DNA of 64,000 bases from NCBI GenBank assembly GCA_963169855.1, contig CAUJCN010000002.1, positions 197,508-261,507 on the forward strand, written 5' to 3'. A model generated the notes under the pieces. The model saw only the letters and a list, made by a program, of their open reading frames with translations, was not told where the DNA came from and ran no database searches. Shown here one piece after another: positions 181 to 16,443 of the stretch (within the stretch, counting starts at the first letter, position 1; each line of letters opens with the position of its first letter). Origin of the DNA: Patescibacteria group bacterium (GTDB lineage: Bacteria; Patescibacteriota; Dojkabacteria; J137). The translations under genes and the position numbers were made by a program.

Positions 181-300
181 TAAAAAAGTAAAAAAAAGGA
201 GCTACTTTGCTCCGTAAATATGATTATTTTATTATTTTTTTGATCTTCATAAGCCTAGAAGATCATAATACAAAAAACGTGTTGTTTGCAACTATAGAAA

Positions 301-1245: not shown

Positions 1246-1264
1246 AAATTGCCCTAATAAGTAA

Positions 1265-2131
1265 TTACATTACTTTGTGCAAGCTGTTTAGAACATCATC
1301 CAGTAAAGTTAATTTAGATTCTGAGCTTACACCCTCTTCGATTCCAAAATAGTAAGCATTTCCTACATAACTTCCGAATTCGTCTGTTACATTAAATGCA
1401 AATTCATTTGTTACAATAAAGTTTTCATCAATTCCACAAGCTGTATTAAATACTGTTGGATTTTCCTCTCTAGCAACATAAAGTTGAGATTCAACTCTTC
1501 GTATATTTCTACCGAAAACGAATATTTGAACGTAATCTGCATTTGTATAGTCGATAACTTGAGTTGGATCGAGTTCGAATTCTGCTCTTTCATCCCTAAC
1601 CATTTGTATGTAACTTGCTTCTGTATCTGCAAATTGTGCTACTGATGAACAACCACCGGCTCCGCCAATTCCTAGAACTCCAGCAAATTTAAAAACAACA
1701 TTGCTATTTTCATCGACAATTTCAAAACCAGTCAAACCTGAAAAAGTTGCTGCATCAGCAGCTCCTTCGTAAAGTCCTTGTGAATTAGAATATTCTATAA
1801 TATTCCATTGAGTTGGAATTGTTGCTTCTACATATATACCTCTGAATAATCTTGTGTTGCTAACTTCTTCTTCATCATTATTTGGACTGTCATCCTCATC
1901 AGAATCGTTTTCATCATCTTCATTTTGATTATTCTGATCATTTTGAGTATCTTCTTGTTGATTGTTATTTGTATCCGCAACTTGGGTGGGTCGGGTCGCC
2001 GAATAAAGCACAAACAAAATAAGTCCTATTACTATAAAGGTGAAGCACAACAAAAGACTAATTATTATAATCAACAACTTTTTTTTACTAGGTTTTTGAA
2101 TTTGAGTTTGCTCAGTTGAAACATTTTCCAT
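1265..2131 (-). CDS. membrane-anchored hypothetical protein with acidic low-complexity linker
   Basis: N-terminal TM helix (LLIIIISLLLCFTFIVIGLILFVLY) followed by Asn/Gln/Asp/Glu-rich tract (QNDQNNQNEDDENDSDEDDSPNNDEEE) and a C-terminal globular region; no recognised motif. Confidence 0.45.
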   Translation of the reverse strand: MENVSTEQTQIQKPSKKKLLIIIISLLLCFTFIVIGLILFVLYSATRPTQVADTNNNQQEDTQNDQNNQNEDDENDSDEDDSPNNDEEEVSNTRLFRGIYVEATIPTQWNIIEYSNSQGLYEGAADAATFSGLTGFEIVDENSNVVFKFAGVLGIGGAGGCSSVAQFADTEASYIQMVRDERAEFELDPTQVIDYTNADYVQIFVFGRNIRRVESQLYVAREENPTVFNTACGIDENFIVTNEFAFNVTDEFGSYVGNAYYFGIEEGVSSESKLTLLDDVLNSLHKVM

Positions 2132-2230
2132 GCATTTTGATTAACTAAGATAAGTATAAGACAGACTAAATTGAATTGATACTACGACTACAAAAATCCA
2201 TGATAATATTTAATTAGTTACTTTAAAAAT

Positions 2231-2530
2231 ATGTCTTCATTACCAAAGTTATCTAAAGATTTACTAGAAGAGCTCTTAAAATCAAGTGAGTTGGATTGGG
2301 AAATACTAGAGGATGGGGTAACTAAATTACGAAAAGAATTTAAATTCGATACATTCGAAGATGCGGTTGCATTTGTAGATAAAGCAACACAAGAAATCTC
2401 TAAACATAATCACCACCCCGATATACAAATTTCGTATAACAAAGTGGTGTTTACTACTTGGGATCACGAAGCTGAAGGAGTCACCCAAAAGGATCTTGAT
2501 CTAGCAAAAAGCATTACGCTTTTGTTTTAA
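2231..2530 (+). CDS. pterin-4-alpha-carbinolamine dehydratase (PCD/DCoH family)
   Basis: 99 aa with PCD signature ...EISKHNHHPDIQISYNKVVFTTWDHEAEGVTQKDLDLAKSI... Confidence 0.75.
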   Translation: MSSLPKLSKDLLEELLKSSELDWEILEDGVTKLRKEFKFDTFEDAVAFVDKATQEISKHNHHPDIQISYNKVVFTTWDHEAEGVTQKDLDLAKSITLLF

Positions 2531-2909
2531 GAGCAAGGTTGTAATCAGAAATCATTGCAATTGCCATGTTGTAAATTTCGAATCCGATCTCGAATCCAAA
2601 CTCCGAATGACTCACTTTACTTGATGCTCTAATCAAATCCTTTTGCAGAATATCTCTACATAACTCATCAAAGAATATTGCTCTTTCTTTTAGTTCGTCA
2701 GGTGAAACACGAGTTCTGTTTTCTGCATATCTTTTTGCTAAATACATAACTGAGCTGGATTGATCTGGAGTTGCTGGGTATTTTGTATTGATGAATTCTT
2801 CTAAACTTCCTGCAAACTGCTGCTTAGGTAAAGGAGGTGCCGCAGTTGTATCTAAAAGTGCTTCCGCGTCCAGCTTCTCGTCTTCAATAAACATATCATC
2901 ACCTGACAT
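2514..2909 (-). CDS. hypothetical protein
   Basis: 131-aa ORF, no recognisable motif; overlaps convergent PCD gene by 17 nt. Confidence 0.35.
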   Translation of the reverse strand: MSGDDMFIEDEKLDAEALLDTTAAPPLPKQQFAGSLEEFINTKYPATPDQSSSVMYLAKRYAENRTRVSPDELKERAIFFDELCRDILQKDLIRASSKVSHSEFGFEIGFEIYNMAIAMISDYNLALKTKA

Positions 2910-3006
2910 AAATTGTATTTAACAAATAAATTCTTAGTAGTCCTGAACTTGTTCAGGAATAAATATTATTCTATCACGGTATATTATCTAAGCGAAATTA
3001 CACATA

Positions 3007-3438
3007 TTATAGCGACGTATCTGAAAGTTTTAAAATAGCATCCCACTCGCCTTTCGATACCGACGAGACAGAAAGTCTAGATAATTTTACTAATTCCATG
3101 TTACTAAATTTGGGATTCATTTTGATTTCCTCCAAGGTTACTGGTTTATTTAATTTTTTAACGGGTGAAAAATCAACTACAACCCATTGACCTACGCCAA
3201 GTTTTCGGTCAATTTTCTCTGTAGGGTCTTGATAAAATTCTTTTGTAACTTTAGCAACGCCAACAATTTCTTTTCCAACATTACTATGGTAATAAAAAGC
3301 CAAGTCACCTACTTTCATTTCTTTTAAATTATTTCTTGCTCTGTAATTTCTAACTCCAGTCCATATCGACTTTCCATCTTTCACAAGATCATCCCAAGAG
3401 AATTCGTCAGGTTCTGATTTAATAAGCCAGTAGTTCAT
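3007..3438 (-). CDS. EVE domain (PUA-like) protein
   Basis: N-terminus MNYWLIKSEPDEFSWDDLVKDGKSIWTGVRNYRARNNL...GDLAFYYHS matches the EVE/thymocyte-nuclear-protein-like fold consensus. Confidence 0.75.
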   Translation of the reverse strand: MNYWLIKSEPDEFSWDDLVKDGKSIWTGVRNYRARNNLKEMKVGDLAFYYHSNVGKEIVGVAKVTKEFYQDPTEKIDRKLGVGQWVVVDFSPVKKLNKPVTLEEIKMNPKFSNMELVKLSRLSVSSVSKGEWDAILKLSDTSL

Positions 3439-3444
3439 ACGTTT

Positions 3445-4035
3445 TTAGTTAAAAATTGATAAATCTATTTTATCAAAATCTATTGGTGGATTTTCATCGA
3501 AAACTTTTTTGATTAGAACTTTATACTCGTCTTCGGTCCATAAAACTAAATTCATTTCTGATATAAACTCTTCAATTTGGTCTTCTGCTTTATTACGTTG
3601 CGATTCGTCTTCAAGCTCAATTTCAATTTCGTAGTGATCTTGTAGCAAACCCTGATTTTTTAAAGAAATTGTAAAATTCTTATATTTGTAATCCTCTCGA
3701 TAGTAAAATCTTGGACAACCATTTACAACTCCAAACATCCTTAGGAAATCGAAAATTGAGTCAATATTTTTAAGATCAAAGGGAAGGGATAGCTCCTGCC
3801 TTGCTGTATCTTTCAAGTCTCCCAATTTTGCTTTAAGTCTTGCTGTAGTTGAATTTTCAGAAAGATTCTGGGAAATTGAGATATTTATTTGATTCTTGTT
3901 TTGATCATTCTTGAAAGTGGTAAAGATTCCCAATTGATTATACTTTCCTAAGAGTTGTGAATTCTTCGAGAGGAATTTCTGAAATTCTTGAAACTGTTCC
4001 TCTAATAGTGGACCTCTTTTTTCGATTTCGATCAT
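3445..4035 (-). CDS. CYTH-like (triphosphate tunnel metalloenzyme) domain protein, paralog 1
   Basis: N-terminal acidic motif MIEIEKRG (ExExK-like) and C-terminal CPRFYYREDYKYKNFTISLK...DHYEIEIELED (R..Y...lD...ExExE pattern of CYTH); paralogous to 10346..10975 and 13422..14030. Confidence 0.45.
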   Translation of the reverse strand: MIEIEKRGPLLEEQFQEFQKFLSKNSQLLGKYNQLGIFTTFKNDQNKNQINISISQNLSENSTTARLKAKLGDLKDTARQELSLPFDLKNIDSIFDFLRMFGVVNGCPRFYYREDYKYKNFTISLKNQGLLQDHYEIEIELEDESQRNKAEDQIEEFISEMNLVLWTEDEYKVLIKKVFDENPPIDFDKIDLSIFN

Positions 4036-4121
4036 AAGATTTTGTACAAAGTTAATGATATCAGCAATCTTTTTCTTAAAGATCCACCTAAAGTTCTATG
4101 TATGTTCAGAGATAAATCACA

Positions 4122-4934
4122 TCATTTCAATATATTGCTATTTAATGATATTAGAGGAGCGAATGTTATATAACCTTCTGGTCGAGTTTTATCTGCCCCT
4201 AATAACTCTGAATAAATCTCCCTCATAGAATTGTTCAATTTAGAAGCATCCACAGTTATCTCTGGCTGAAGTGCTTCTGTATGAGCATAGTGAATATTTT
4301 TGGTTCCTAATCTCTGTACAACATCGTTTTTGGAGTAATAAAAGGCTTCGGTAAGATAAATTGCCAAACTGTTTGTTAAATTCACAGAAATTGGGATTCC
4401 TGCATATGCTGTAATATAACCATAGGTTGCCAGGACTCTACTTCTCGCAATCACAGCACCGGGGGTTTTTGTTTGACCAACAATCAATGCTGGATTAATG
4501 TATTCAATTCCAGCTTTGTACAGAGCACCAGCAACTCCTTTACCCTGGAAGTCTGGATGGACAACTATACCTACATCACATGCAAGAACTTTATAACTAA
4601 ATAATTTTTTTGAATCTAGTTCTGATGAGGTGTTTGATTTAATAAATTCTATTAGTCTACCTCCACGTTTATCCTCGATATCGTTCTTCCAAAGAATAAA
4701 ATACAAACTTCCCACCACTCTACCTTCTACTTCAGCTAGAAAAATTACAGTACGGTTTTCTCCATGATCAAATTCTTCTTCTACAACTTGTTCTTTTGTT
4801 TTGTCTCCAACAGGCATCCCATAGCCATCAATTATATGATCAGCAATGCTAGGATTCCTTTTGCCTGCTTCTACGATTTCACTTGGTGTAAAGATTTTTA
4901 TTTTGACTTCAGGAAAAGATTCAATGTGCTCCAT
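4122..4934 (-). CDS. GNAT family N-acetyltransferase with C-terminal extension
   Basis: GNAT motif A region VHPDFQGKGVAGALYKAG preceded by TVIFLAEVEGRVVGSLYFIL. Confidence 0.6.
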   Translation of the reverse strand: MEHIESFPEVKIKIFTPSEIVEAGKRNPSIADHIIDGYGMPVGDKTKEQVVEEEFDHGENRTVIFLAEVEGRVVGSLYFILWKNDIEDKRGGRLIEFIKSNTSSELDSKKLFSYKVLACDVGIVVHPDFQGKGVAGALYKAGIEYINPALIVGQTKTPGAVIARSRVLATYGYITAYAGIPISVNLTNSLAIYLTEAFYYSKNDVVQRLGTKNIHYAHTEALQPEITVDASKLNNSMREIYSELLGADKTRPEGYITFAPLISLNSNILK

Positions 4935-5257
4935 TAGTTATAAAACATAATATCTAAAACATCGATGGTTGGAGTTTCGTAAGGATGAATTTCTTTTATT
5001 GCTTTGACGACTTCAACTAATCTATCTTTGGGACAAATCATTTCTACTTTATCCTCTGGTTCTCTAGACATTTTATTCTGACTTCCAATAAAGGGAGCTG
5101 CATTTTCACTGGGGAGGTAATTACCAAAACCTTTTGTAATAAATGCACAGTGAGTATAGTTGCCTACAACACCTGCCCCTGCGTGAGACATTGCCTCTAT
5201 TAACTCGTCGGTATAGGCTTCTGGAATTGTCACAAAAATTTTATAGACTTCTTGCAT
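4934..5257 (-). CDS. CutA/PII-like small protein
   Basis: 107 aa, C-terminal HPYETP motif reminiscent of the HPYE(V/T)P motif of CutA1/Nif3; coupled by 1-nt overlap to downstream GNAT gene. Confidence 0.4.
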   Translation of the reverse strand: MQEVYKIFVTIPEAYTDELIEAMSHAGAGVVGNYTHCAFITKGFGNYLPSENAAPFIGSQNKMSREPEDKVEMICPKDRLVEVVKAIKEIHPYETPTIDVLDIMFYN

Positions 5258-5266
5258 ACAATTATT

Positions 5267-6544
5267 TTAACTATAAGGGCCGTATTGAGCAATGACAACT
5301 AGAAACTTAATACTCATGATTACAAACGCTACATAAGGAATAAACCTGAACTTATCAGAAATAGTTAAATATTTACTTAACAATAGAATAACAATAAACT
5401 GAACGACTAATACAATATTGTAGAGTAAACGGTCCCAATAGTTCCCCAAGCCAAAAAAGAAAAGAATAAACAGTCCCAGAAGTAGAAAGTATGGTCTAAA
5501 TTCAGCGACAATCTCCTTCTTCTGACTTTTCTTTAAAACAAGTAATCCAATGTACAGGACAATCATCGTTAATAACGAAATCCACATTTCAGTAGTTTGA
5601 GATAGAATGAATGAGCGAATGTGATTAACAATATTTTGAATCCCTGCACCAAATCCATTCTCAAATCCATCCAGCACCCAAACAAATTGTCGGTAAGATT
5701 CCGCTGCATGATTAAAGTATGTGCCTGTTTTCCACTTTACTACCATCGGCCAAATAATAGTTGGTAAAGCTGTAAGAGTAATTATTATACCTAGTGGTAA
5801 ATGTTTCAAAGGATTTAGTTTTCTCAAGTTAATATTTTTAAGTAAATATTGAAGTGCTAAAGCACCTGAAATCAAAACTACACTTGGGTAAAGTGTGGCC
5901 CCTAGACCAACTGAAGCAGCGATCAGATACTTTACTGAATTTTTTATTCCGTACTTATATTCATAGTAAATGATGGAAACAGAAGCAATTGGTATTAGTG
6001 CATTAAAAATTTGCTGATGAGGAGTAAACACAAATGCTTTTACAACTTCATTTGAAGCAAGCGCTATAACTCCAGTTAGTATTAAAAACAGACTGAATGA
6101 TTCTTTCTTGGCAATTTTCAAGAATAAGAAAATACTTGTAAACAATAAAGAGAAATTGAAAAGAATGAATCCCGCAAGAAATCTTGCGTCAATAAATAAT
6201 CCAGTTTCGGCTGGTGGAAATCCTGTAACTTTTGATAATGCTATAAAGGGTAACGAGTATACAATTCCAGTTGGAATCACTCCAGGTCTACTCTGCAATA
6301 ATTGACTTTCGTCAAAAACCGTTTTTGGATACTTCGCTAAATTAATTAACGCACTTGAATCGCAATTTAGAACAAACCCTGCAGAATCATTAAGTTCAAT
6401 GTACACTCCACAAACTTGATCTATTCCTTCTCTTGGAGCTGGTGAGAATAAAAATGCAAATGGCAGTAAACAAAAGATTGCTGATGTGATTAAAAACCTG
6501 GAGTTGCTTCGAATTAACATGGAGGATTTTTTAAGAAGATTCAT
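5267..6544 (-). CDS. polytopic integral membrane protein (possible GT-C type glycosyltransferase)
   Basis: 425 aa, at least ten hydrophobic helices; family assignment not supported by a specific motif. Confidence 0.4.
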   Translation of the reverse strand: MNLLKKSSMLIRSNSRFLITSAIFCLLPFAFLFSPAPREGIDQVCGVYIELNDSAGFVLNCDSSALINLAKYPKTVFDESQLLQSRPGVIPTGIVYSLPFIALSKVTGFPPAETGLFIDARFLAGFILFNFSLLFTSIFLFLKIAKKESFSLFLILTGVIALASNEVVKAFVFTPHQQIFNALIPIASVSIIYYEYKYGIKNSVKYLIAASVGLGATLYPSVVLISGALALQYLLKNINLRKLNPLKHLPLGIIITLTALPTIIWPMVVKWKTGTYFNHAAESYRQFVWVLDGFENGFGAGIQNIVNHIRSFILSQTTEMWISLLTMIVLYIGLLVLKKSQKKEIVAEFRPYFLLLGLFILFFFGLGNYWDRLLYNIVLVVQFIVILLLSKYLTISDKFRFIPYVAFVIMSIKFLVVIAQYGPYS

Positions 6545-6625
6545 TCTAGATTAGTAATTTATTTTATCTTAACATTAAATTGATAAATTTAAATCTGCTA
6601 CATTACTGAGGTATAAATTCTGATT

Positions 6626-7294
6626 TTACAATATTCTTTGATCATAAGTTTCTTGATCGACTAAATATACTCCCGTACAGGTAATTAAGTTTAGCTGACT
6701 TTGAACTCCTGAATTTTGAGAGAATAGAAATTTCCCAGCATCTTCTGTATTAACTGTGATCACTTCTAACACTTTGAATTTCTTCGAAGTTCCGTCCCCT
6801 ATCTCAATAGAAAATTCGTCATTTGGATTCAAAGAACCGAGATTTTTGAAAATCCCTCCTAAATTTGGACCATCTACATGACCATCAATAATACTCAATC
6901 CTGTATCTCCAGGTCTGACGCTGTCTACAAACCATCCAGCAAAGTGAATATTTGGAGGAACCGCGATCTCTACATTCTGATCTACACCTACTTTTAAAAC
7001 GTATCCTTCTGTGGAAATAGTTGGAAGATTAATATATTTAGGATCGGATTCTTTCCCATACCAGATATAATTTTCATCTGGTGGAACTTCATCAGGAATA
7101 TCTGTGGAATGAGTTATTACAACATCATTAGGATCAACCACCTCTGGTTCAGATTGTGGAGGCTGCTTCTGAAAGATCAGTGAAGTGTGTTCGCTAGTTT
7201 CGATAACTACATAAGGATGAGCAACAGTTTCTTGATCTAGTTTAAGCCAGTAAAGCTCTCCTTGATTGATGGCCATAATTAGTAAGTACTCCAT
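6626..7294 (-). CDS. sortase family transpeptidase
   Basis: Catalytic motifs IIDGHVDGPNLGGIFKNL (His) and LNLITCTG (TLxTC Cys) characteristic of sortases. Confidence 0.7.
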   Translation of the reverse strand: MEYLLIMAINQGELYWLKLDQETVAHPYVVIETSEHTSLIFQKQPPQSEPEVVDPNDVVITHSTDIPDEVPPDENYIWYGKESDPKYINLPTISTEGYVLKVGVDQNVEIAVPPNIHFAGWFVDSVRPGDTGLSIIDGHVDGPNLGGIFKNLGSLNPNDEFSIEIGDGTSKKFKVLEVITVNTEDAGKFLFSQNSGVQSQLNLITCTGVYLVDQETYDQRIL

Positions 7295-8025
7295 CCTCCA
7301 TCAGCTACGAGAATCGCTCCATTTATAAAACTTGCCTCGTCGGAAGCTAAGAAAAGAGCTGCTTGTGCAACCTCCATAGGATCACCAATTTTTTGATTAC
7401 CTTGATTTGAAAGCATTGATTTAATTAACTTACCCGCAGTAGAAAGATTAATACTGCCCGACATTATATTGGTATTCATTGCCCCTGGAGCTACAGCATT
7501 ACATCTAATACCAGATTTAGCATAAAAGTAAGCAGTATTTTTTGTAAGACCAACCACACCATGTTTACTTGCAGTGTATGCTGCTCCTGCTCTCCCACCT
7601 TCTAATCCTCCAATTGATGCTATATTCACAATAACCCCAGCCTTCTTTTTTTGAAAGATTTTGATTGCTTCTCTCATCATATAAAAAGTTCCTTTTAGAT
7701 TTATATTAATCACTCTATCGAATATCTCATCTGATACATCACCAACGGGATCTAGTTTATCCATAACTCCTGCATTGTTTATTAGAATATCAATCTCAGA
7801 ATTTTCAAAAACTTTCTTCACATCATCTTTGTTTGAAATATCTGCAGTAACAGAAGTTACGGTTGATCCCTGCGGAAGCTCAGACATAAATTGAGCTAAT
7901 GTTTGTTGGTTATAATCTATTGCGATTACATTAGCTCCCTGCTTCGCGAATAGGAGCGCGATCTCTTTACCTAAACCTGAGGCTGCTCCTGTAACTATAG
8001 CCGTTTTATTTCGAAGTGATAACAT
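7279..8025 (-). CDS. SDR family oxidoreductase (FabG-like)
   Basis: TGAASGLGKEIA cofactor-binding motif, NNAG, catalytic YTASKHGVVGLTK. Confidence 0.85.
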   Translation of the reverse strand: MLSLRNKTAIVTGAASGLGKEIALLFAKQGANVIAIDYNQQTLAQFMSELPQGSTVTSVTADISNKDDVKKVFENSEIDILINNAGVMDKLDPVGDVSDEIFDRVININLKGTFYMMREAIKIFQKKKAGVIVNIASIGGLEGGRAGAAYTASKHGVVGLTKNTAYFYAKSGIRCNAVAPGAMNTNIMSGSINLSTAGKLIKSMLSNQGNQKIGDPMEVAQAALFLASDEASFINGAILVADGGWSTY

Positions 8026-8047
8026 AACTGGAGTGATAAGAAATAAA

Positions 8048-8488
8048 TTAACTAACAGCTTTCTTTACTAATTCAATAATTCTTTTTTCCTCGACTGGGG
8101 TTAGCTTTAACAGTACAAACGATGTTGGCCACATGTTTCCATCATCTAAATTCGCTGAATCATTAAACCCTAATGTTGAATATCTTGCTTCGAATTTGCT
8201 TCCTGCTTGGAAAAAACAAACTACTTTTCCATCAGCATTTGCGTATGCTGGCATACTGTACCAAGTTTTTGGGAATAACTGAGGAGCTGTTTCTGTAACA
8301 AGTTTATGAATTCTTTTTGCCATAGATTTATCCGGTTCTTTCATAAGTGCAATCACAGCATCAATGGCTTTTTCGCCTTCTGCTCTATTCTTATTCATCT
8401 TTGCTTCTGCTCGTAACTCTTTTGCTCTTTCTCTCATTGCTTGTTTTTCGAAATCGGAAAATACTGGTTCTGCAGGTTTTGTTGCCAT
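8048..8488 (-). CDS. hypothetical protein
   Basis: 146-aa ORF with N-terminal Lys/Glu/Ala-rich helix; no recognised motif. Confidence 0.4.
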
Positions 8489-8579
8489 ACTTTTTTATTA
8501 AGAGTTATTAAGATCATCTTATCAGAAAAGGTGATTTTGATAAATTTTTGTGTAAAATGTTAATAGTTAATAAAAGAAA

Positions 8580-8948
8580 ATGATTTCGACACAAATTCTA
8601 ATTGCAGCTTTATGGGTAATGTTAATGCTCGTTTATCTACTTGGTGATGTTTTAAGAATATTCAGTGGAGACTTTAAACCCGGAGAAATTATGGGAAAGA
8701 AAGTAGGTCAAGCTGTGTGGTTGGGAATATCGATATTTATGTTAATTCCAATTCTAATGATCTTTTCTACTTTGACGTTGGATTATTCAGCAAATAGGAT
8801 CCTGAATATTGCTGTGGCAGCATTGTTCCTTGTCTTCAACCTGTTTGGTTTACCTAGCTACCCTTCTTGGTACGATAGATTCCTAATCGTTGTTGGATTG
8901 GTGTTTAATGTACTGACGATTGGTTACGCTTGGAATTGGGTTGTCTAA
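8580..8948 (+). CDS. small integral membrane protein
   Basis: 122 aa, four predicted hydrophobic helices. Confidence 0.4.
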   Translation: MISTQILIAALWVMLMLVYLLGDVLRIFSGDFKPGEIMGKKVGQAVWLGISIFMLIPILMIFSTLTLDYSANRILNIAVAALFLVFNLFGLPSYPSWYDRFLIVVGLVFNVLTIGYAWNWVV

Positions 8949-9787
8949 GTCTCACCAAAACCAGTAATAAGATCCTGTAATGCTTGTAGTGGTTTTCCTC
9001 CATTCAAAGAACGTGTTGGAGGAACTCCATGAACTTTTACATTAGGTACATTTTCTAAGTCAGAAACTAAAGTGCCGTCCACAGTCGCCGATCTTGCATA
9101 CTCAGGAGCATTATCTCTACGCAGAATATTGTAAGCATCTTTTTGAAACACTAAAACATTACCCCCTTTAGGCATGAATTCTCTTATTATTTTAAGATGT
9201 TTTTGTTTTTCTGCTTGTTGGATTCTTTTAAACACATTCGATCCAAATAACCTCCGAACTCCAGAGACCCCTGTCCATGGTTCGGTACTTGGAGTCGAAG
9301 GCATGGAAATAAAAGATATGAAACCTAATCTAAATGGAGATTGATAATCCAACTCTAAAAGTTGAGTTCTTCTTGTTGAATTTAACTGCTCTCTTGATTG
9401 ATTATGTAGTGTTTGATCAGTATTAAAATTTAAGAGTTGGATTTTTCTAAAGATCCTCCAAATTCTGTGTTCACGTCCATTACCTTCATACGAAAAAATC
9501 ATTTTTAGATTGATAGAACTTGGTGCTGGATTTCCAAACATGAGTAACAGAGGCGATCGGCCATCATCTTTGTCAGGAATCATCCTTTCTGAAAGATATG
9601 TTATTCTGTGACCATCTTTAAACAAGACGCCATCATTCATCTCATCAGATTTGTAGAAACTATCCCATCTACCTTCGAAAGCTTTTCTATCTAATTCGTC
9701 AGGATACAATTCGTTTAGATTTAGTACATACTTTTCTATCACATCATCATGTCTTTCTAAACTCAGTAAATTTCCAAAATCTTCCAT
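8945..9787 (-). CDS. uracil-DNA glycosylase superfamily protein (Mug/TDG-like) with N-terminal extension
   Basis: LLLMFGNPAPSS...HRIWRIFRKI resembles Mug FCGINPGLSS...NRFWKVIYQA (the motifs that in Mug/TDG enzymes form the active-site pocket). Confidence 0.4.
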   Translation of the reverse strand: MEDFGNLLSLERHDDVIEKYVLNLNELYPDELDRKAFEGRWDSFYKSDEMNDGVLFKDGHRITYLSERMIPDKDDGRSPLLLMFGNPAPSSINLKMIFSYEGNGREHRIWRIFRKIQLLNFNTDQTLHNQSREQLNSTRRTQLLELDYQSPFRLGFISFISMPSTPSTEPWTGVSGVRRLFGSNVFKRIQQAEKQKHLKIIREFMPKGGNVLVFQKDAYNILRRDNAPEYARSATVDGTLVSDLENVPNVKVHGVPPTRSLNGGKPLQALQDLITGFGET

Positions 9788-9790
9788 AAA

Positions 9791-10336
9791 TTATTTATAT
9801 GACTCTAGTAAATCATTAACGAGATCCATAATTTGGATTTCGTCTTCGACATTGATATCATATTCTACCCCTGTATTAGTAAAATCTTCAATAAAGTTTT
9901 TAACTTCCTCGGGTCTCCAATCATCAATTCTTTTAATCCTAATAGCTTTAACATTTCGAAGGATCAAGTGTTTGATATATGGATTTACTGAATCCGAAAA
10001 CATCGGTTTATATAGAAATAGAATTGGCTTATCGTGAAGTATTGCATAAGCGATTTCTATACTAGCACTAACTCCGATATATCCTATCTGATCAACGAAT
10101 TTGTTATGAACAACGTGAATAGGATTTCTCTTGATTGCTTTAAAGAAATCTATCTCTACTGAATGGAAGTTCTTTTCTTCTGTAGGAATAAAAGTGACAT
10201 CTATTCCGTTATGCTGACCGATAATTCCATCATTAAAAGGAAATTCAACAATAACTCCAGCAGACTCTAGTTTCTTTTTAAGTTCGAAAAGTCCATTTTC
10301 TAGCTTTGAAAATTTACCACCAAGTTGAGTTTTCAT
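9791..10336 (-). CDS. nucleoside 2-deoxyribosyltransferase-like (NDT/Rossmannoid) protein
   Basis: IGYIGVSASIEIAYAILHDKPILFL resembles the D-GTxFE(L/I)GyA...KP(V/I) core of NDT-like proteins; weak. Confidence 0.35.
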   Translation of the reverse strand: MKTQLGGKFSKLENGLFELKKKLESAGVIVEFPFNDGIIGQHNGIDVTFIPTEEKNFHSVEIDFFKAIKRNPIHVVHNKFVDQIGYIGVSASIEIAYAILHDKPILFLYKPMFSDSVNPYIKHLILRNVKAIRIKRIDDWRPEEVKNFIEDFTNTGVEYDINVEDEIQIMDLVNDLLESYK

Positions 10337-10345
10337 ATGAGAATA

Positions 10346-10975
10346 TTAAATATTACAAGAAATAAATTCTTTCCATTGACTAAACCACTGATCAACTGAT
10401 AATTTTGTAAAATCTACTTGAGTTTCTTCAATCTGATTAATTTTGTTGATGAATGAAATTGTATCTTCGGAATTGAGAACTTTTAAATTCTGAGCTAAGA
10501 AGAAATCTTCGATATCTTTTTCAGCTATAGTAGTTGAAGATTTCTCATCTACCGTCTTTTCAACTTCGACAAGGATTTCATCCATATGATGATACGAATC
10601 AATAGTTATGATGAGACCATTTAATTCATACTTTTTTCTAGTTACATACATTGATACAAAGTAGTTGAATCCTAGAGAAGTAAGCATGTTTACAATTTCT
10701 GAAATCTCATCATTCTGAAAATGAATTTCGTTCTCTTTTCTACCAGAACTATCATGCCAATTTCCTTTCTTCACTGTGAATAGGGACTCATTTTTAGTTG
10801 TTCTAATTTTAATATCAAGATCATTGTTAGGATCGGAAGTAAAATCAGAGTTTTGAACTTTTACTAAAGTATATCTTTTAACTTCACTTAATTTCTTACT
10901 ATTCGAATTTAAGTATATAAGAAGCTCATCGTTTTTGGCGTTTGATATCAAAGCACGTTTTTCAACTTCAATCAT
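10346..10975 (-). CDS. CYTH-like domain protein, paralog 2 (divergent)
   Basis: N-terminus MIEVEKRA and C-terminal TRKKYELNGLIITIDSYHHMDEILVEVE matching the R..Y...l.lD....G.f.EvE CYTH motif. Confidence 0.4.
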   Translation of the reverse strand: MIEVEKRALISNAKNDELLIYLNSNSKKLSEVKRYTLVKVQNSDFTSDPNNDLDIKIRTTKNESLFTVKKGNWHDSSGRKENEIHFQNDEISEIVNMLTSLGFNYFVSMYVTRKKYELNGLIITIDSYHHMDEILVEVEKTVDEKSSTTIAEKDIEDFFLAQNLKVLNSEDTISFINKINQIEETQVDFTKLSVDQWFSQWKEFISCNI

Positions 10976-10984
10976 AGTAATATA

Positions 10985-11623
10985 TTAATAAATATGATGT
11001 AACTCCGTATTAAGATTAAGTATTTCAGCAACAATTGAATCCGCTGCTCCAGCAGGATTCTCAATCGAGTTTTCGACTAAATGCTCATAACTAATGTGTT
11101 CCCTTAACTGCTCACTTGCAACATTTAATCTGTGCTCAATGACTGATTCATCTACATCGAATCCTCTATTTCTTGAAAGTATTCTTCTTCTAATTTCTTC
11201 CAATGCTAACTCTATCCCATCATCTTTTAGTAATATTTCATTAGATACAGGACTGATGAAGTATCTCCTTGATGAAATTCCTAGTTCTGATAATAATGCA
11301 TTAAGCTTTACTCCTGATAAAACATCTAGATCTAAAATAGCAGTCTTCCCATCTCGAATAATTTCTATTATATCTATTAACCTTGTACCATAATACCCAT
11401 GTTTGAAATTTGTAAACTCTCCAAACTCTTGTCGTACTAACATCTCTTCAAATTCAATCTGAGATACAAAATTGTATGTAACTCCATTAATCTCATTTTT
11501 CCCAATAGATCTGGATGTATATCGAATTACTTTTGTAACTTTAGAATCAGATTTTTTTATTATTTGGTCAAGTACAGTTCCTTTTCCAACTGTATTTGGT
11601 CCAGAAATTATTACTACATTCAT
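10985..11623 (-). CDS. guanylate kinase-like P-loop kinase
   Basis: P-loop ISGPNTVGKGT; TSRSIGKNEINGVTYNFVSQIEFEEM and FKHGYYGT align with GMK TTR...GE.DG.DY.FVS.EEFE and GN.YGT motifs. Confidence 0.6.
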   Translation of the reverse strand: MNVVIISGPNTVGKGTVLDQIIKKSDSKVTKVIRYTSRSIGKNEINGVTYNFVSQIEFEEMLVRQEFGEFTNFKHGYYGTRLIDIIEIIRDGKTAILDLDVLSGVKLNALLSELGISSRRYFISPVSNEILLKDDGIELALEEIRRRILSRNRGFDVDESVIEHRLNVASEQLREHISYEHLVENSIENPAGAADSIVAEILNLNTELHHIY

Positions 11624-11625
11624 AA

Positions 11626-12432
11626 CTAAAAGTTTTCAATAAATGAACACAATTGATTTGGTAAAGCAATTGTAACTTTTGCACTTGCAATAGAGTTTTG
11701 TTTTCTAGCTTCATCTCCACCCAATAGTTTTCTTGTTCTTTTAGAAGTTGCATCCCATAAACGTTCCATTGTTTTATCACTGTAACCCAGAGCTACATCA
11801 GCAAGATGAGCTTCTTCTTGATTATCGTTTAACCTATAAAATAGATGATCGCCCTTCAATTTAGTTCTAATTGCAAGTTCAAATACTGGAGCTTGCCGAG
11901 TTACTGGCATGTATTCCAGTGGGGCGAATGCTACCAACCAGGAAAGTACGTCCTCATCTCCGAGAGGCGTTCTTAAACCAATTGAAACTAAATCACCTAC
12001 AGGCTTTATATGTCCAACTCGGATATTTTTTAAACATACAAGAGAATTAACTATCCGAGAAACTTGTTCTGGAGTCGTTACATCTGGAAAAAGAAAACTA
12101 ATAACTTCGTTATGCGGATCAGCAATTGCTTGCGATATCATTTCGTCTAATTCAGCAAGAGTCTGATCCTCTAAGTTTCTTATAATTTTGCTTTCCCAGC
12201 CAATCTCTTCCTGCTTATATGCAATTGATTGAGCAAAGACACAACCATTTTGACCAGTGTGATGCCAATGTTGCTGTATCATTTTTACAGAGTGATCATT
12301 TTCCCAAACTTCATCTGGTGCTTTAGCGTATCCTTTCCCTAAGCAGTACTCCTCGTAATCGTTTCTCGTAGGAAAACTATCTTCCCCCACAATAAGAGAT
12401 TTAGAAATAACATGGTTTATATTATCTCTCAT
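11626..12432 (-). CDS. hypothetical protein (locally higher GC)
   Basis: 268-aa ORF in a locally GC-richer stretch; no recognised motif. Confidence 0.4.
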   Translation of the reverse strand: MRDNINHVISKSLIVGEDSFPTRNDYEEYCLGKGYAKAPDEVWENDHSVKMIQQHWHHTGQNGCVFAQSIAYKQEEIGWESKIIRNLEDQTLAELDEMISQAIADPHNEVISFLFPDVTTPEQVSRIVNSLVCLKNIRVGHIKPVGDLVSIGLRTPLGDEDVLSWLVAFAPLEYMPVTRQAPVFELAIRTKLKGDHLFYRLNDNQEEAHLADVALGYSDKTMERLWDATSKRTRKLLGGDEARKQNSIASAKVTIALPNQLCSFIENF

Positions 12433-12720
12433 AATATTATTAGTAATAATTAAGTAGCTTATGAATTAATGCCTTTTACAACTAAATTCTGTGCGAGTAC
12501 TTTTTTATTAAATGTCCTTTATTATGATTGCGAAAACTCGCCAATTCTCTTTCCCAGCAATACGATAGTGCCAATATTGATTGACATTTTTTGAAGACTA
12601 ATGTAGAATTATGATTGCAAGAAAAACACAGAGAACACTCTGATGTTAATCTTGGTACGAAGCTGATTGGTTTAGACCTCGAAATCAAAAACCAACCAGC
12701 TTTTTTTACATTGACTCTCC

Positions 12721-12778
12721 ATACACACATGTGTATAATTATACAGTTATGTGTAATACCATGTGTATAAATATTACT
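12721..12778. promoter_or_regulatory. candidate operator: 10-bp palindrome ACACATGTGT plus three direct ATGTGTA(T/A)TA repeats in divergent promoter region
   Basis: Read directly: atacacacatgtgtataattatacagttatgtgtaataccatgtgtataaatatt immediately upstream of 12780 (+) gene. Confidence 0.3.
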
Positions 12779-12779
12779 A

Positions 12780-13439
12780 TTGCAATTGATTTTATGTCAA
12801 GCAATTTTGTCAATTATATTAATCAAATACATTAATTTCATGAAAGTCTTCTTTAGTTGTTCAACAAACGATATCTTAAAACATAGAGAAAATTACGAAA
12901 CAATAGTAAAGACTATCTCAGAAGAAGGTCATGAATTAACAAGAGACTGGCTAAAACGTTCTGTTGACTTAGCTGCAAAGAATGAGCCTGAGTTAAATAG
13001 GGGTAATCACTACTCTTCAGTAATGTCGGCAATAATTGATGCAGACGTCGTTATTTTCGACAGTACTGTAAAAAGTATGAGCATAGGACATCAACTAACT
13101 TTTGCTCTAGACAAATCAAAACCTGCACTACTACTTGCAAATATATCTGATAAAGCGATGGAAGATCTGTTTATCAGCGGTTCGAAATCCTCTTTCCTTA
13201 CAATGAAAAACTACGCAAATGCAAAGGATCTTAAAGCATTAGTCAAAGACTTTTTAACAAAGAGTTCCTCAAAATCAAAAGTCCGATTTCAAATAGTATT
13301 GGACAAGGAACAGAATGACTACCTTGAATGGGCAGCATTTAAATACAAGAAGAACAAAAGTGATATTGTAAAAGTATCTTTGAATAATTCCGCCGAACAA
13401 GACGAAGATTACAACCAAAGACTATCCAATCAACCCTAG
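12780..13439 (+). CDS. DNPH1/Rcl-like (2'-deoxynucleoside 5'-phosphate N-hydrolase-like) NDT-superfamily protein, catalytic-Glu position is Gln
   Basis: MKVFFSCSTND...AIIDADVVIFDSTVKSMSIGHQLTFALDKSKPALLLA parallels DNPH1 YFCGSIRGG...ADVVVAEVTQPSLGVGYELGRA...KRILCLF; Q replaces E in the G(Y/H)(E/Q)LG element; the first Met of the ORF is probably not the true start (MKVFF internal start plausible). Confidence 0.5.
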   Translation: MQLILCQAILSIILIKYINFMKVFFSCSTNDILKHRENYETIVKTISEEGHELTRDWLKRSVDLAAKNEPELNRGNHYSSVMSAIIDADVVIFDSTVKSMSIGHQLTFALDKSKPALLLANISDKAMEDLFISGSKSSFLTMKNYANAKDLKALVKDFLTKSSSKSKVRFQIVLDKEQNDYLEWAAFKYKKNKSDIVKVSLNNSAEQDEDYNQRLSNQP

Positions 13440-14030
13440 ATCAATTTCACTCATTGGAATTGGAGGATTTTCCTTGAATACATTAAGCATGATTTCTTTA
13501 TATTCACTCTCGGTATAAGCCTGTAGATTATGTTGTGATAAAAAGTCTTCAATTAATTTTTCTGCATCATCTTCTTGGTCTTTATCTTCCAGTTCAATAT
13601 CGATTTCAAAATGATCTGGTGCTAAACCGCCTTCTTTTAAAGTAATGTTCAGTCCATTGTACGAGTAATCTTCTCTATGATAAAAACGAGGACACCCTTC
13701 AGTTATTTGAAATATTGAGAGGAATTTAAATACTTCATCAAGATCTGATTTAGTAAAATCCATACTACTTTCAATACGTTTTCCAGATTCCATTCTTCCA
13801 GTTTTACTTTTCAGTTTGCATTTAATAGTATGATTAATTTTATCTTTTGAAATTGATACATTTATGGAAGCTTTTGTATTCTCTATATCACCTAAGAATG
13901 GATTGTTGAACTCGATAAAAATATTTAATTGATTACAATCATTTACCAAAGTTGCATTCTTCTGCAAAAAGTTCCTTAGTTTTAGCTTGTTTTGAGGATC
14001 TAACCTGCCTCTTTTTTCAATTTCGATCAT
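13422..14030 (-). CDS. CYTH-like domain protein, paralog 3
   Basis: MIEIEKRG N-terminus; EGCPRFYHREDYSYNGLNITLKEGGLAPDHFEIDIELED closely parallels paralog 1. Confidence 0.45.
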   Translation of the reverse strand: MIEIEKRGRLDPQNKLKLRNFLQKNATLVNDCNQLNIFIEFNNPFLGDIENTKASINVSISKDKINHTIKCKLKSKTGRMESGKRIESSMDFTKSDLDEVFKFLSIFQITEGCPRFYHREDYSYNGLNITLKEGGLAPDHFEIDIELEDKDQEDDAEKLIEDFLSQHNLQAYTESEYKEIMLNVFKENPPIPMSEIDLGLIG

Positions 14031-14035
14031 AGGGC

Positions 14036-15004
14036 TTAACCTTGTAAGTAGGATTCTTCTGAAATATGCACAATTTTACTATCCATAAATTTATCTGCAA
14101 TCTTTTTTGAGAAACCATGTCCCATCCAAATTGTCGGTTTACATTCGATTTTAGTTCTGATTAGTTTCCCTGAATTCATTGTATCAGTACCTTCGATAGA
14201 TTTTCTTGTAACATAGTTTCCATCGAAATAGATTGGCAAAAAAGGAACCGTAGCAAAGGTATAAAATGAGGATCCTTTAAAGATTGAACCATAAAATAAA
14301 ATATTTGGATTGACCGCTGATATTATTCCTGTGTAAGTTTCTTTAAACTTCTGCACAATGAACTGCGCGCCTAAACTAAATAATAATGACATCGCGTTCA
14401 CAGGCGCACCATTAATATTGTATGCTCGAGTTAAAACTAGCATTTTTTCCATTTCTACATCAAAGGGAAGTGCTTTCTGCAAATAAATTCTATCTAATTT
14501 TGAGTAAGCAGAATATGCGAATGGAAATTGCTCACCTTTTCTAAAAAGTCCCAGATGTATAAGAGTATCTTCTCGTCTTTTACCAATATAGTGAAGGTTC
14601 TCTTGAATTGCAAAACCAATCTCGGGATCTACTTCTTTAAATTCAATTTCTAGTTCTTTACCCTGTATGTCAACTTCGATTATCTTTCCATGATTATGTT
14701 TAACTTTTGATAACTTATCGGTAGAGCTTGTTACTAAATGCTTTAAACCTTTAGGCAAACTATTGATTTTCTTTCCTAATATAAGAGCCAACCTTTTCGC
14801 CTCAAGATAAGGTGTCTGAAATTCCACATTTCCATCAGTATAGATTTCTTCAAGTGAAAATTTAGGGATGTGCAATGCAAGAGCAGTTTTTAGATAACCT
14901 GCTGGAATACTGTGCTTTTTTTCTAGATCGATAATTCTATCCCTCAGCACATCTGTAATTTCTTTTACAATCAGATTGGGACTAAAGATATCTTCTGTTG
15001 ACAT
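14036..15004 (-). CDS. hypothetical protein
   Basis: 322-aa ORF, no recognised motif; 5 nt upstream of CYTH paralog 3. Confidence 0.4.
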   Translation of the reverse strand: MSTEDIFSPNLIVKEITDVLRDRIIDLEKKHSIPAGYLKTALALHIPKFSLEEIYTDGNVEFQTPYLEAKRLALILGKKINSLPKGLKHLVTSSTDKLSKVKHNHGKIIEVDIQGKELEIEFKEVDPEIGFAIQENLHYIGKRREDTLIHLGLFRKGEQFPFAYSAYSKLDRIYLQKALPFDVEMEKMLVLTRAYNINGAPVNAMSLLFSLGAQFIVQKFKETYTGIISAVNPNILFYGSIFKGSSFYTFATVPFLPIYFDGNYVTRKSIEGTDTMNSGKLIRTKIECKPTIWMGHGFSKKIADKFMDSKIVHISEESYLQG

Positions 15005-15046
15005 TAGCTCGTGTTATACACGGGAAGTATATCATTAATGGACTAA

Positions 15047-15080
15047 AGCAAAAAGCCCTGTCATCCGACTGGGCTTTTTG
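15047..15080 (-). terminator. Rho-independent terminator downstream of tRNA
   Basis: Hairpin AAAAGCCC-loop-GGGCUUUUU followed by U-rich tract on the minus strand. Confidence 0.4.
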
Positions 15081-15081
15081 T

Positions 15082-15153
15082 ATGACCTCACGGAGAATCG
15101 AACTCCGATTAGCAGATTGAGAATCTGCTGTCCTAACCGTTAGACGATGAGGC
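15082..15153 (-). tRNA. tRNA-Glu (anticodon CUC)
   Basis: Minus-strand cloverleaf GGCCTCA/TGAGGTC acceptor, T-arm CGGAG-TTCGATT-CTCCG, anticodon stem GCAGA/TCTGC with loop TTCTCAA; CCA not encoded. Confidence 0.7.
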
Positions 15154-15261
15154 CAATTGCAGCCTTCGACTGAAAATTCAAACAAATGAAAGATCCAAGT
15201 TCGAGATTTCAGTTCCATGGCTCGCAATTATATCACGTAGTAATTAAGCTTTGTGTATAAC

Positions 15262-15286
15262 AAAAAACTCCCTTTCGGGAGTTTTC
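15262..15286 (-). terminator. Rho-independent terminator downstream of nusA
   Basis: AAACTCCC-TTTC-GGGAGTTT hairpin followed by T-run on the minus strand, 20 nt after the nusA stop. Confidence 0.5.
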
Positions 15287-15306
15287 AAAATTCAACTTAA
15301 ATTCAA

Positions 15307-16443
15307 TTATTCTACAGCACCCTCTGCTACTACAGTTGGCTCTTCAGCTACAACTTCTGCTTCTGGTTTAGCTCTTCCAGCTGCTTCTGATTCTCCTTTA
15401 ATTTCAATTGACCATCCAGTCAATTTGCTTGCCAATCTTACGTTCTGGCCATCTCTTCCGATTGCCAATGATTCTTTAGTATCTGGAACAACTATAATAG
15501 CTTGCTTTTCTTCTTCGCTTACAATCTTCACTTCGATAGCTTCTGCAGGACTAATAGAGTTCATTAAGAATTTCTCTCTGTCTTCTGCCCATGGAATAAT
15601 GTCAATTTTTTCTTCGAATGCTCCAGCTTTTAGTTCATTAGAAATTGCATTAATTCTAATTCCCTTTTGTCCAACGCATGATCCAATTGGGTCAACACCT
15701 TGTGCCAATGATCTAACAGCTACTTTTGATCTTGATCCAGGTTCTCTTGCAATGCTTACAATTTCAACTGTTCCAGATTCAATTTCAGGAACTTCCATCT
15801 TGAATAATCCGTGTAAGAATTCAGGATCAGCTCTAGAAACTAATAAGTATTTGTTTCCACTTTCTTCCTCTATAATTTCTTTTAACAATACTTTGATATT
15901 GCTTCCTAATTTGTAGAATTCTCCGTTAATCTTCTCTTCCTTAGGCATTACTGCTTTAGCTCTATTGATTTCGCAGATAACATCTCCAGTTTGTGTAACT
16001 TTCTGAACGAATACAGTAACAACTTCTCCAACCTTGTCCTGAACTTGTCTGATTGCTGCATCTTTCTCAGCTTCTCTTAATCTCTGAACAATGATCTGTC
16101 TTGCTGTTTGAGCTGCAATTCTTCCGAAGTCTCCTTTTGGAGTAATATCAACTAATACAAAATCTCCTAGTTTTAATGATTTATCTGTCTTCTTAGCAGC
16201 TTCTAAACTGATCTCGATACTTTCATCCTCTACAGTAGCCACCACTTCTTTTTCAGCAAAAACCTGAATATTTCCTTCTTCTGGGTTGATTTCAACTTTT
16301 AATCTATCTTGATCTCCAAAACCGTATTCTGCTTTATATGTAGAAGCTACAGCTTCTTTCACTGCATTAATGATCTCATCGGCATCTATCTTTCTTTCAG
16401 CTGCAATTTGTCTAATTGCTGATATAAAATCTGATTGTGACAT
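15307..16443 (-). CDS. nusA: transcription termination/antitermination factor NusA
   Basis: 378 aa; N-terminal NusA domain, S1 (GDVICEINRAKAVMPKEE...) and KH regions (RIAAQTARQIIVQRLREAEKD). Confidence 0.85.
   Translation of the reverse strand: MSQSDFISAIRQIAAERKIDADEIINAVKEAVASTYKAEYGFGDQDRLKVEINPEEGNIQVFAEKEVVATVEDESIEISLEAAKKTDKSLKLGDFVLVDITPKGDFGRIAAQTARQIIVQRLREAEKDAAIRQVQDKVGEVVTVFVQKVTQTGDVICEINRAKAVMPKEEKINGEFYKLGSNIKVLLKEIIEEESGNKYLLVSRADPEFLHGLFKMEVPEIESGTVEIVSIAREPGSRSKVAVRSLAQGVDPIGSCVGQKGIRINAISNELKAGAFEEKIDIIPWAEDREKFLMNSISPAEAIEVKIVSEEEKQAIIVVPDTKESLAIGRDGQNVRLASKLTGWSIEIKGESEAAGRAKPEAEVVAEEPTVVAEGAVE

Follow-up and report, generated by a model that had tools for sequence, protein, structure and literature searches.

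A conserved gene cluster joining UDG-fold, NDT-fold and pyrophosphatase proteins with an unannotated family in a Dojkabacteria-like bacterium, possibly for clearance and salvage of a non-canonical purine

The stretch of DNA analyzed here (hereafter the window; 64,000 nt, positions 197,508 to 261,507 of the forward strand of contig CAUJCN010000002.1, assembly GCA_963169855.1) comes from a Patescibacteria group bacterium of low GC content (about 35%), to which, among named relatives, Candidatus Dojkabacteria and WWE3 come nearest. Its minus strand encodes a UDG-superfamily protein (P1), an NDT-superfamily protein (P2), a CYTH protein and a guanylate kinase (GMK)-like protein in a tightly packed run that is headed by a gene for a further protein, P5, and faced by a divergent gene for an NDT-like protein, P6 (Table 1). 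The evidence is solid that these genes form a real, conserved and as yet unexplained cluster; its chemistry, as we infer it, would be the processing of a non-canonical base both in the nucleotide pool and in DNA.

A preliminary description of the locus, made by eye from the sequence, had claimed four compact minus-strand genes, and their coordinates prove exact: according to the open reading frame (ORF) list, 9 nt separate the kinase and CYTH genes, 9 nt the CYTH and P2 genes, and 3 nt the P2 and P1 genes. The boundaries of that four-gene unit were nevertheless wrong, as it lacked the first gene; P5 is co-directional and ends 2 nt before the kinase start (ORF list), so the operon comprises at least five genes. 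Homologs of each of the four genes exist elsewhere (P1, E 1e-44 to 1e-81; P2, E 1e-46 to 1e-63; the CYTH and kinase homologs matched by iterative hidden Markov model (HMM) searches), which indicates that these are real genes and not chance ORFs. The spacing and the conserved gene order suggest co-transcription. A consensus scan, the site counts of which equal the shuffle expectation and carry no statistical weight, detected no terminator-like site within 8945-12432, and no Shine-Dalgarno-like motifs precede the operon genes; promoter-like sites over the whole scanned region do not exceed the number expected from shuffling. The stop codon of P1 overlaps by 4 nt (8945-8948) with a convergent ORF that appears membrane-like by eye, leaving no space for an intrinsic terminator between the two.

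Table 1. Features of the operon and its surroundings (window coordinates)
Feature	Position	Strand	Size	Remark
P5	11626-12432	minus	268 aa	first operon gene
GMK-like kinase	10985-11623	minus	212 aa	
CYTH protein	10346-10975	minus	209 aa	
P2	9791-10336	minus	181 aa	NDT superfamily
P1	8945-9787	minus	280 aa	UDG superfamily
P6	12840-13439	plus		NDT-like, divergent; ATG at 12840
Intergenic region	12433-12839			
Promoter-like hexamers	12800-12771 and 12767-12738	minus		consensus matches
TGTGTAT/ATACACA repeats	12721-12774			candidate operator
Hairpin	12660-12702		14-bp stem	in the ~300-nt leader of P5
ORF of the public gene call	12482-12730		82 aa	in the leader
P8 and P7	13422-15004	minus		P8, 322 aa
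P7, CYTH paralog	13422-14030	minus		
tRNA-Glu(CUC)	15082-15155	minus		
Convergent ORF	8580-8948	plus	122 aa	membrane-like by eye
GNAT acetyltransferase	4122-4934	minus		
CYTH paralog	3445-4035	minus		
EVE/PUA-like protein	3007-3438	minus		

We propose that the window operon and the divergent P6 gene are one version of a horizontally spread cluster. Searches anchored on P1 (genome contigs) and, for the most part, on P5 (metagenome contigs, exact look-ups), with neighbors labeled by iterated HMMs and Pfam, yielded 20 distinct P5 loci, which belong to candidate-phyla bacteria (WWE3 and Dojkabacteria), to Acidobacteria and to metagenomes of soil or water. The recurring gene order is (methyltransferase) (P6-like NDT) / P5-(MOSC+ATL)-(GMK-like)-CYTH or NUDIX-P2-P1-(MazG or Ham1), and P5 is present in every cluster variant found. 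The Dojkabacteria-like window carries P5-GMK-CYTH-P2-P1; loci from Dojkabacteria (L008), WWE3 (L009) and a contig of GC 61% (L082) read P5-CYTH-P2-P1, and one from Pyrinomonadaceae (L017) reads P5-P2-P1. Additional genes appear in L011 (methyltransferase-P5-GMK-NUDIX-P2-P1-Ham1), L079 (GC 31%; methyltransferase-NDT(PF05014)-P5-MOSC/ATL-CYTH-P2-P1), L080 (GC 35%; P5-MOSC/ATL-GMK-P2-P1-MazG) and the close relative L085 (P5-MOSC/ATL-GMK-CYTH, then the contig end). The order is shuffled in the soil locus L070 (GC 50%; P1-P5-CYTH-P2-MazG), which also has a divergent UPF0020 methyltransferase with an N-terminus that looks kinase-like by eye. Among metagenome contigs, L074 encodes MazG-UDG(PF03167)-P5-P-loop kinase, L076 encodes UDG(PF03167)-P5 with a P-loop kinase on the opposite strand, and L067 and L081 (the latter with P5 in tandem) combine P5 with MOSC/ATL only.

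A UDG-fold neighbor is encoded at 12 of the 20 loci, comprising 10 of the P1 type and 2 of the PF03167 “GEAPG” type, which is unrelated to P1 at the sequence level; six of the eight loci lacking one lie on contigs that end before the position. P2 occurs at 11/20 loci, at least one nucleoside triphosphate (NTP) pyrophosphatase gene at no fewer than 12/20, the kinase at 7/20, MOSC/ATL at 6/20 and a methyltransferase at 5/20. The methyltransferase gene lies directly upstream of P5 in L011, L066 and L068, on the opposite strand beside P5 in L070, and separated from P5 by an NDT gene in L079. If P1-type UDG, PF03167 UDG and ATL are taken together as a base-flipping module, this module accompanies P5 at 16/20 loci, and at the other four the contig ends first. 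The shuffled order in L070, the GC range of 31-61% and the spread over several phyla point to genes linked by function and passed on horizontally, not to inherited synteny. The conservation of gene order, which the preliminary description had named as a check, is thus found in relatives, and its opposite scenario, with the genes scattered and gmk alone conserved, does not apply, as the kinase is not the conserved element. Scans of viral contigs (IMG/VR) returned one split P1 copy and no P5, and a plasmid collection contained neither P5 nor P1. A literature search found no paper on this gene combination, and the cluster architecture appears undescribed.

P1 is predicted to consist of an N-terminal extension of ~75 residues and a core with the alpha/beta UDG fold, closest to TDG/Mug. 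Its family is marked by the motifs FGNPAPHS, EHRxW, PWTGVxG, FQKDAY and PPTR; G85-N86-P87-A88 is invariant in 19 homologs, corresponding to motif A, the bearer of the water-activating catalytic residue (Asn in family 2, to which E. coli Mug and human TDG belong), and N86 aligns with the catalytic N18 of Mug (hhalign pairwise E 0.0017, probability 15%, weak if taken alone). P1 has no Pfam match at E <= 1, including PF03167; phmmer and profile searches against the PDB were empty or returned irrelevant hits, and among the BFVD viral folds only generic phage UDG domains were retrieved, none at E <= 0.001. With identities of 7-20% between either P1 or P2 and solved structures, P1 is a new family within the UDG superfamily. 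P1 homologs also occur alone, in ~45 metagenome-assembled genomes (MAGs) from Desulfobacterales, Chloroflexota, Actinomycetes, Thermoleophilia and one Bathyarchaeia bin; several of these MAGs have two copies or truncated fragments, in variable neighborhoods, a pattern reminiscent of mobile or defense genes. Two strains of a single Dojkabacteria species (L007 and L008) differ in the region downstream of P1 (after 8867), a variable hotspot: one strain carries type I restriction-modification genes and an integrase, the other Mrr, MmeI, a HigB toxin and a Beta_protein-domain protein (PF14350).

P2 is likewise a new family, here within the NDT superfamily. It is predicted to adopt the NDT/Rcl Rossmann-like fold and to lie closest to the nucleoside monophosphate (NMP) N-glycosidases MilB, its closest structural relative, and DNPH1; PF05014 gave no match in nine P2 family members at E <= 10. 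The invariant E94, placed after the central strand as is the glutamate nucleophile of the superfamily, aligns with E104 of DNPH1 (hhalign pairwise E 8.6e-4), the role of which has been described (PMC10603095), and is a candidate nucleophile. DNPH1 has a phosphate-binding serine six residues before its nucleophile (S98; also S128'), whereas the corresponding position in P2 is an invariant glycine (Gly88) and not the aspartate by which NDT enzymes bind the 5'-OH, with Ser90, Ser92 and Ser114 conserved nearby; monophosphate specificity is therefore a candidate property only. P2 further differs from MilB/BlsM and DNPH1/Rcl in an extra C-terminal helical extension of about 50 residues.

The CYTH protein matches PF01928 (1e-7; 32.4 bits, cutoff 23.2) and has the N-terminal EXEXK motif (MIEVEKR). 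It scores 33 bits against the class IV adenylate cyclase model TIGR00318 (cyaB), for which the cutoff is 57.95, and is presumed to be an NTP tri- or pyrophosphatase. In L011 a NUDIX protein takes the CYTH slot, and L070, L074, L080 and L011 have MazG or Ham1 as additional genes (Ham1 match among the cluster relatives, 2.4e-32). The clusters thus use pyrophosphatases of four unrelated folds (CYTH, NUDIX, MazG and Ham1), which, with NUDIX in the CYTH slot, identifies the step as hydrolysis of NTP to NMP and counts against a cyclase or signaling function. Ham1, a family of house-cleaning purine NTPases, takes its name from the sensitivity of yeast to 6-N-hydroxylaminopurine.

The kinase belongs to the guanylate kinase family (PF00625, 1.6e-21; 77.3 bits against a gathering score of 25.2), yet it falls short of the gmk equivalog TIGR03263 (92.9 bits, cutoff 160.45), and its Walker A sequence is GPNTVGKGT instead of the canonical GxxGxGK[ST]. 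The GKGT variant defines a clade with complete members in L011, L080 and L085 and a partial copy at the end of L083. The kinase gene is absent from the clusters of L008, L009, L017, L070, L079 and L082; being among the less constant members, it is not simply gmk, and we regard it as an accessory member of the cluster on the basis of this distribution. There is no second GMK-like ORF in the 64-kb window.

These assignments bear out the four family calls that had been made by eye, and the proteins do not fall into unrelated families, as profile and fold assignments agree with all four. For the Mug/TDG-like and NDT-like calls it is the superfamily fold that holds, in neither case with a sequence match (PF03167 and PF05014, respectively); the CYTH call is upheld by the Pfam gathering score and EXEXK, and that of a GMP-kinase homolog with a GKGT Walker A by PF00625 and the clade-specific GKGT. 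The motifs that had been quoted are present (GNPAPSS...EHRIWRIF in P1; GKGT, TSR and YYGT in the kinase). What had been missed are the pyrophosphatase swaps, the divergent probable regulator P6 and the ATL/MOSC proteins of relatives.

P5 belongs to a family of at least 646 clusters at 50% identity (exhaustive profile search). Among 69 diverse members, C64, F66, R179, P182 and A211 never vary and W56, T178 and H209 hardly ever do, a conservation pattern that suggests an enzyme. Neither the window protein nor 15 relatives nor the 69 diverse relatives match Pfam, NCBIfam or PADLOC, and there is no PDB match by sequence or profile (best, chlorite dismutase, E 0.65, not significant). The sole library match is the unannotated phrog_34888 (8.7e-9), which corresponds to a short P5 homolog in Cellulophaga phages. 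In Cellulophaga phage phi17:2 (302-3409 of locus L065) this homolog, gp004 (182 aa, HMM E 8.5e-14), adjoins a macro-domain protein, with a UDG four genes on, and all lie upstream of DNA polymerase I. Public names looked up for ten proteins of the P5 family, the P1 family and P2 were all blank or “hypothetical protein.” Two candidate identities for P5 were rejected: a YqcI/YcgG protein (no PF08892 match in the 69 members at E <= 10; hhalign probability 0.3% against a validated member with a Pfam match of 9.3e-81) and a hidden UDG (hhalign probability 0.7% against P1). On a single 2.5-kb contig, one predicted protein (P0060) reads through P5 into CYTH, and may be a true P5-CYTH fusion or reflect a lost stop codon. 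Tandem P5 paralogs occur in L081 (1630-3310; 267 and 285 aa) and L084 (3531-5202; 268 and 281 aa) after genes for two-component regulators, and at one of the two loci only MOSC/ATL comes next; in these versions of the system P5 stands alone, with no UDG or NDT partner within the contig.

At six loci, fusions of MOSC with a DNA_binding_1 (MGMT-like) domain are encoded in which the cysteine of PCHRV is replaced by L, V, I or S, giving the ATL-like motif P[LVIS][HY]R[IV]. PF01035 matches the proteins of the four loci that were scanned (3e-10 to 3e-7), and L083 and L085 have precomputed PF01035 matches. An MGMT fold with the acceptor cysteine replaced fits the definition of ATL proteins, which bind O6-alkylguanine without repairing it (PMC10779285). 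The MOSC proteins YcbX and YiiM detoxify 6-N-hydroxylaminopurine, reducing hydroxylaminopurine to adenine (PMC3831636; PMC5818509). In L083 (6805-7517) and L085 (2325-3077), which have P5 proteins 61-62% identical to that of the window, the MOSC/ATL gene lies between P5 and the kinase gene and is split in two in L083; its retention there, and its absence from the window, where only 2 nt separate P5 and kinase, look like lineage-specific loss. Unlike ATL proteins and YiiM/YcbX, the fusion of the relatives holds MOSC and a cysteine-less MGMT-like domain in one protein. We know of no description of a fusion between MOSC and an MGMT-like domain, though no search aimed at one was made.

The functional options offered in the preliminary description (salvage or remodeling, signaling, and defense) were broad. 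Taken together, the evidence speaks for a cluster that acts on a non-canonical base, among free nucleotides as well as in DNA, be it for housekeeping sanitization or for defense, and not for nucleotide signaling. The Ham1, ATL-like and MOSC partners and the GMP-kinase-like enzyme point to a non-canonical, guanine-like purine. We propose, at a probability of roughly 40%, that the cluster performs multi-level clearance and salvage of one such purine, probably O6- or N-modified. The folds or families of P1, P2, the CYTH protein and the kinase, their conserved linkage and the four interchangeable pyrophosphatase folds are established, and could be combined in the following route. The CYTH protein (NUDIX, MazG or Ham1 in other versions) would hydrolyze the aberrant (d)NTP to its monophosphate, the N-glycosidic bond of which would be cut by P2 via a covalent Glu94 intermediate, as in DNPH1 and MilB, to give the free base and (deoxy)ribose-5-phosphate. 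P1 would flip this same base out of DNA and excise it by means of the Mug/TDG-type Asn86. P5 might restore a usable base or nucleotide from the modified one, or process the modified base in DNA, perhaps by dealkylation or another reversal involving its invariant Cys and Arg and conserved His, and the GMK-like kinase would return the rescued GMP-like product to the pool. In relatives, the MOSC and ATL-like protein would add lesion binding and perhaps reduction of N-oxidized bases, and P6 may sense a nucleoside or nucleotide and regulate the operon. Small-genome candidate-phyla bacteria depend on scavenged nucleotides, and we count their presence among the hosts in favor of clearance.

Several points weigh against this proposal. 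The substrates of all components are putative, as are the flux direction, the part played by P5 and regulation through P6, and the central step given to P5 is a guess. The CYTH protein could be a cyclase and not a hydrolase. The window operon lacks both ATL/MOSC and Ham1, which carry much of the argument for a lesion and are found in relatives, some of them close. Candidate-phyla bacteria are unlikely to make molybdenum cofactor, such that MOSC may not be catalytic in them. The kinase and the S-adenosylmethionine methyltransferases (five loci) fit a biosynthetic route at least as well. The patchy distribution, with some loci beside restriction-modification or anti-restriction genes, speaks for conflict and not housekeeping, and the sample of loci is small and anchored on P1 or P5.

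The same chemistry could serve a different purpose, that of destroying a phage-specific modified base: P1 would excise the base from incoming or replicating phage DNA, like the UDG-fold defense glycosylases Brig1 and Brig2, the pyrophosphatase and P2 would deplete the modified dNTP and dNMP, and P5 and ATL would recognize the modification. UDG-fold glycosylases are proven defense effectors against phages with hydroxymethylcytosine or modified thymine and are spread on mobile elements (PMC11078745; 10.1101/2025.10.29.685425). Across phyla the cluster has a patchy distribution, the region just after P1 in L007 and L008 is a variable defense island, L080 carries ArdA and L074 a large serine recombinase, and the solitary, multiplied or truncated P1 copies of the ~45 MAGs sit in variable contexts. 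Brig1 and Brig2 have a divergent UDG fold that is undetectable by sequence, are horizontally spread and are often single genes in variable regions, in which the solitary P1 homologs are alike, by description only; Brig1 and Brig2 act as single genes, however, whereas P1 sits in a metabolic cluster of 5-7 genes. No model of PADLOC-DB 2.0, a library that predates Brig1, Brig2 and the Dag proteins, matches the eight proteins beyond noise at the kinase P-loop (E 2e-4 to 0.014). Several loci lie amid genes of housekeeping function (in L009, PilM/N and ribosomal genes; near the window, NusA), a salvage-type kinase and methyltransferases would be unexpected in purely degradative defense, and there is neither an att-like repeat at the adjacent tRNA-Glu nor any plasmid copy among those searched. 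We consider anti-phage defense rather improbable. Less probable again is biosynthesis, the product being either a modified base or nucleotide that the cell places in its own DNA or a metabolite in the form of a free base. Here a canonical NTP would be cut to NMP, modified by P5 (with a methyltransferase where there is one) and re-phosphorylated by the kinase for incorporation, while P2 and P1 would remove the unmodified counterpart from pool and DNA, or P2 would free the finished base as do MilB and BcmB. Base modification at the dNTP level is established for T4 and dZ phages, and the combination of pyrophosphatase, modifying enzyme and NMP kinase follows the logic of such pathways. Methyltransferases lie by P5 at five loci, MilB is itself a biosynthetic enzyme, the short P5 homolog of Cellulophaga phages is encoded in the early/replication region near a macro-domain gene, UDG and DNA polymerase, and genes for a weak Mom-like protein and an EVE domain lie in the window as well. 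Yet the clusters include no dedicated polymerase, their partners are house-cleaning (Ham1), lesion-binding (ATL-like) or detoxifying (MOSC), two of their enzymes cleave N-glycosidic bonds, the methyltransferase is absent from the window and most loci, and the IMG/VR scans found almost no viral copies; we consider biosynthesis unlikely.

Second-messenger signaling, with the CYTH protein as a class IV-type cyclase and P2 as an NDT/TIR-like effector that degrades nucleotides or NAD, is very unlikely: the cyaB score lies far below its cutoff, neither the NUDIX protein in the CYTH slot of L011 nor the MazG and Ham1 proteins elsewhere can make a cyclic signal, no CBASS, Thoeris or Pycsar sensor/effector architecture is present (PADLOC negative), and the constant partners are DNA base-flipping proteins. 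There is scarcely any likelihood that an essential gmk merely adjoins unrelated small genes with no common function. The clear PF00625 match and the lack of another GMK-like ORF in the window would suit it; the shortfall against the gmk equivalog, the atypical P-loop, the loss of the kinase from otherwise identical clusters at six loci and the joint occurrence of P5, P2 and P1 across phyla all contradict it.

Clearance and salvage of a non-canonical purine has a partial counterpart in human cells, in which DCTPP1 (MazG-like) and ITPA (Ham1) are pyrophosphatases of the nucleotide pool. Human DNPH1 (NDT fold) and SMUG1 (UDG fold) deal with the same base, hydroxymethyluracil (hmU), in the pool and in DNA (PMC10603095). 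The likeness to this sanitization of hydroxymethyldeoxyuridine extends to an NDT-fold N-glycosidase, a UDG-fold glycosylase and all-alpha (MazG) or Ham1 pyrophosphatases, MazG and Ham1 being found in relatives of the window operon. The human genes are dispersed and are not known as an operon, whereas here there is one predicted transcription unit, with P5, the kinase and (in relatives) ATL/MOSC in addition; and the human substrate is hmU, whereas here it is more likely a purine. If the clearance reading is true, one bacterial operon unites what in human cells is divided among DNPH1, SMUG1, DCTPP1 and ITPA, namely the exclusion of a dangerous base from both nucleotide pool and DNA, which would be relevant to ultra-small candidate-phyla bacteria building their DNA from scavenged, often modified, nucleotides. 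Should P1 excise O6-alkylguanine-type lesions, it would, to our knowledge, provide the first glycosylase route for damage whose handling is ascribed solely to direct reversal or ATL-guided excision repair. If defense or DNA hypermodification is the function instead, a multi-enzyme strategy acting on pool and DNA would be added to either field. In any event, three protein families unnamed in current databases (the UDG-fold family, the NDT-fold family and P5) come to light, and the repeated linkage of P5 to DNA base-flipping proteins offers a handle on its chemistry. A more far-reaching joint claim, possible but in our view doubtful, is that P5 founds a new enzyme family, perhaps with a new fold, that works with DNA base-flipping proteins (UDG-fold proteins of two unrelated families and a cysteine-less MGMT-like domain), in a cluster dedicated to recognizing one purine, damaged or hypermodified, in the triphosphate, in the monophosphate, as the free base and within DNA; such a system would constitute either a new class of anti-phage defense directed at base-modified phages or a pathway for base replacement in self DNA in candidate-phyla bacteria.

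P6 is a candidate ligand-sensing regulator of the operon, a role suggested by its sequence and position. BLASTP aligns it at 4e-9 with a protein of L079 (5292-5900) that is itself PF05014-positive at 6e-14, and P6 homologs lie beside the cluster in L079, L080 and L083. The nucleophile Glu is replaced by Gln (SIGHQLTFA), and hhalign against the P2 family aligns the same motif, without significance. Residues 163-207 weakly match phrog_876 (“transcriptional repressor”), and this C-terminal tail may be ribbon-helix-helix-like. The start given in Table 1 is that of the gene call; a longer ORF begins at TTG 12780. The intergenic region between P6 and P5 holds the promoter-like hexamers, candidate operator repeats and hairpin listed there; Rfam returned nothing at gathering thresholds in this region, and the 82-aa ORF placed in the leader by the public gene call is without supporting homology.

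Immediately upstream of the P8, P7, P6 and operon genes lies a tRNA-Glu gene; a search of 1-16000 for direct repeats of the 3' end of this gene was negative, and there is thus no sign of an integrated island at this site. P8, which has a sub-threshold Mom-family match (E 0.005), is separated by 5 nt from the CYTH paralog P7, and the pair sits just upstream of both P6 and the operon; L083 (2620-4785), a close relative, retains this P8-P7-P6 arrangement, which was not seen in distant loci. P8 has no detectable relationship to the GNAT acetyltransferase encoded at 4122-4934. The latter belongs to a co-directional run (3007-4934) with a CYTH paralog and an EVE/PUA-like protein, another possible nucleotide or modified-base module. 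In all, three CYTH paralogs are encoded within 12 kb on the minus strand, each starting with MIE[VI]EKR; the pair encoded outside the operon shows the greater mutual similarity, with a 24-nt DNA repeat, 96% identical, shared by the 5' ends of the two genes.

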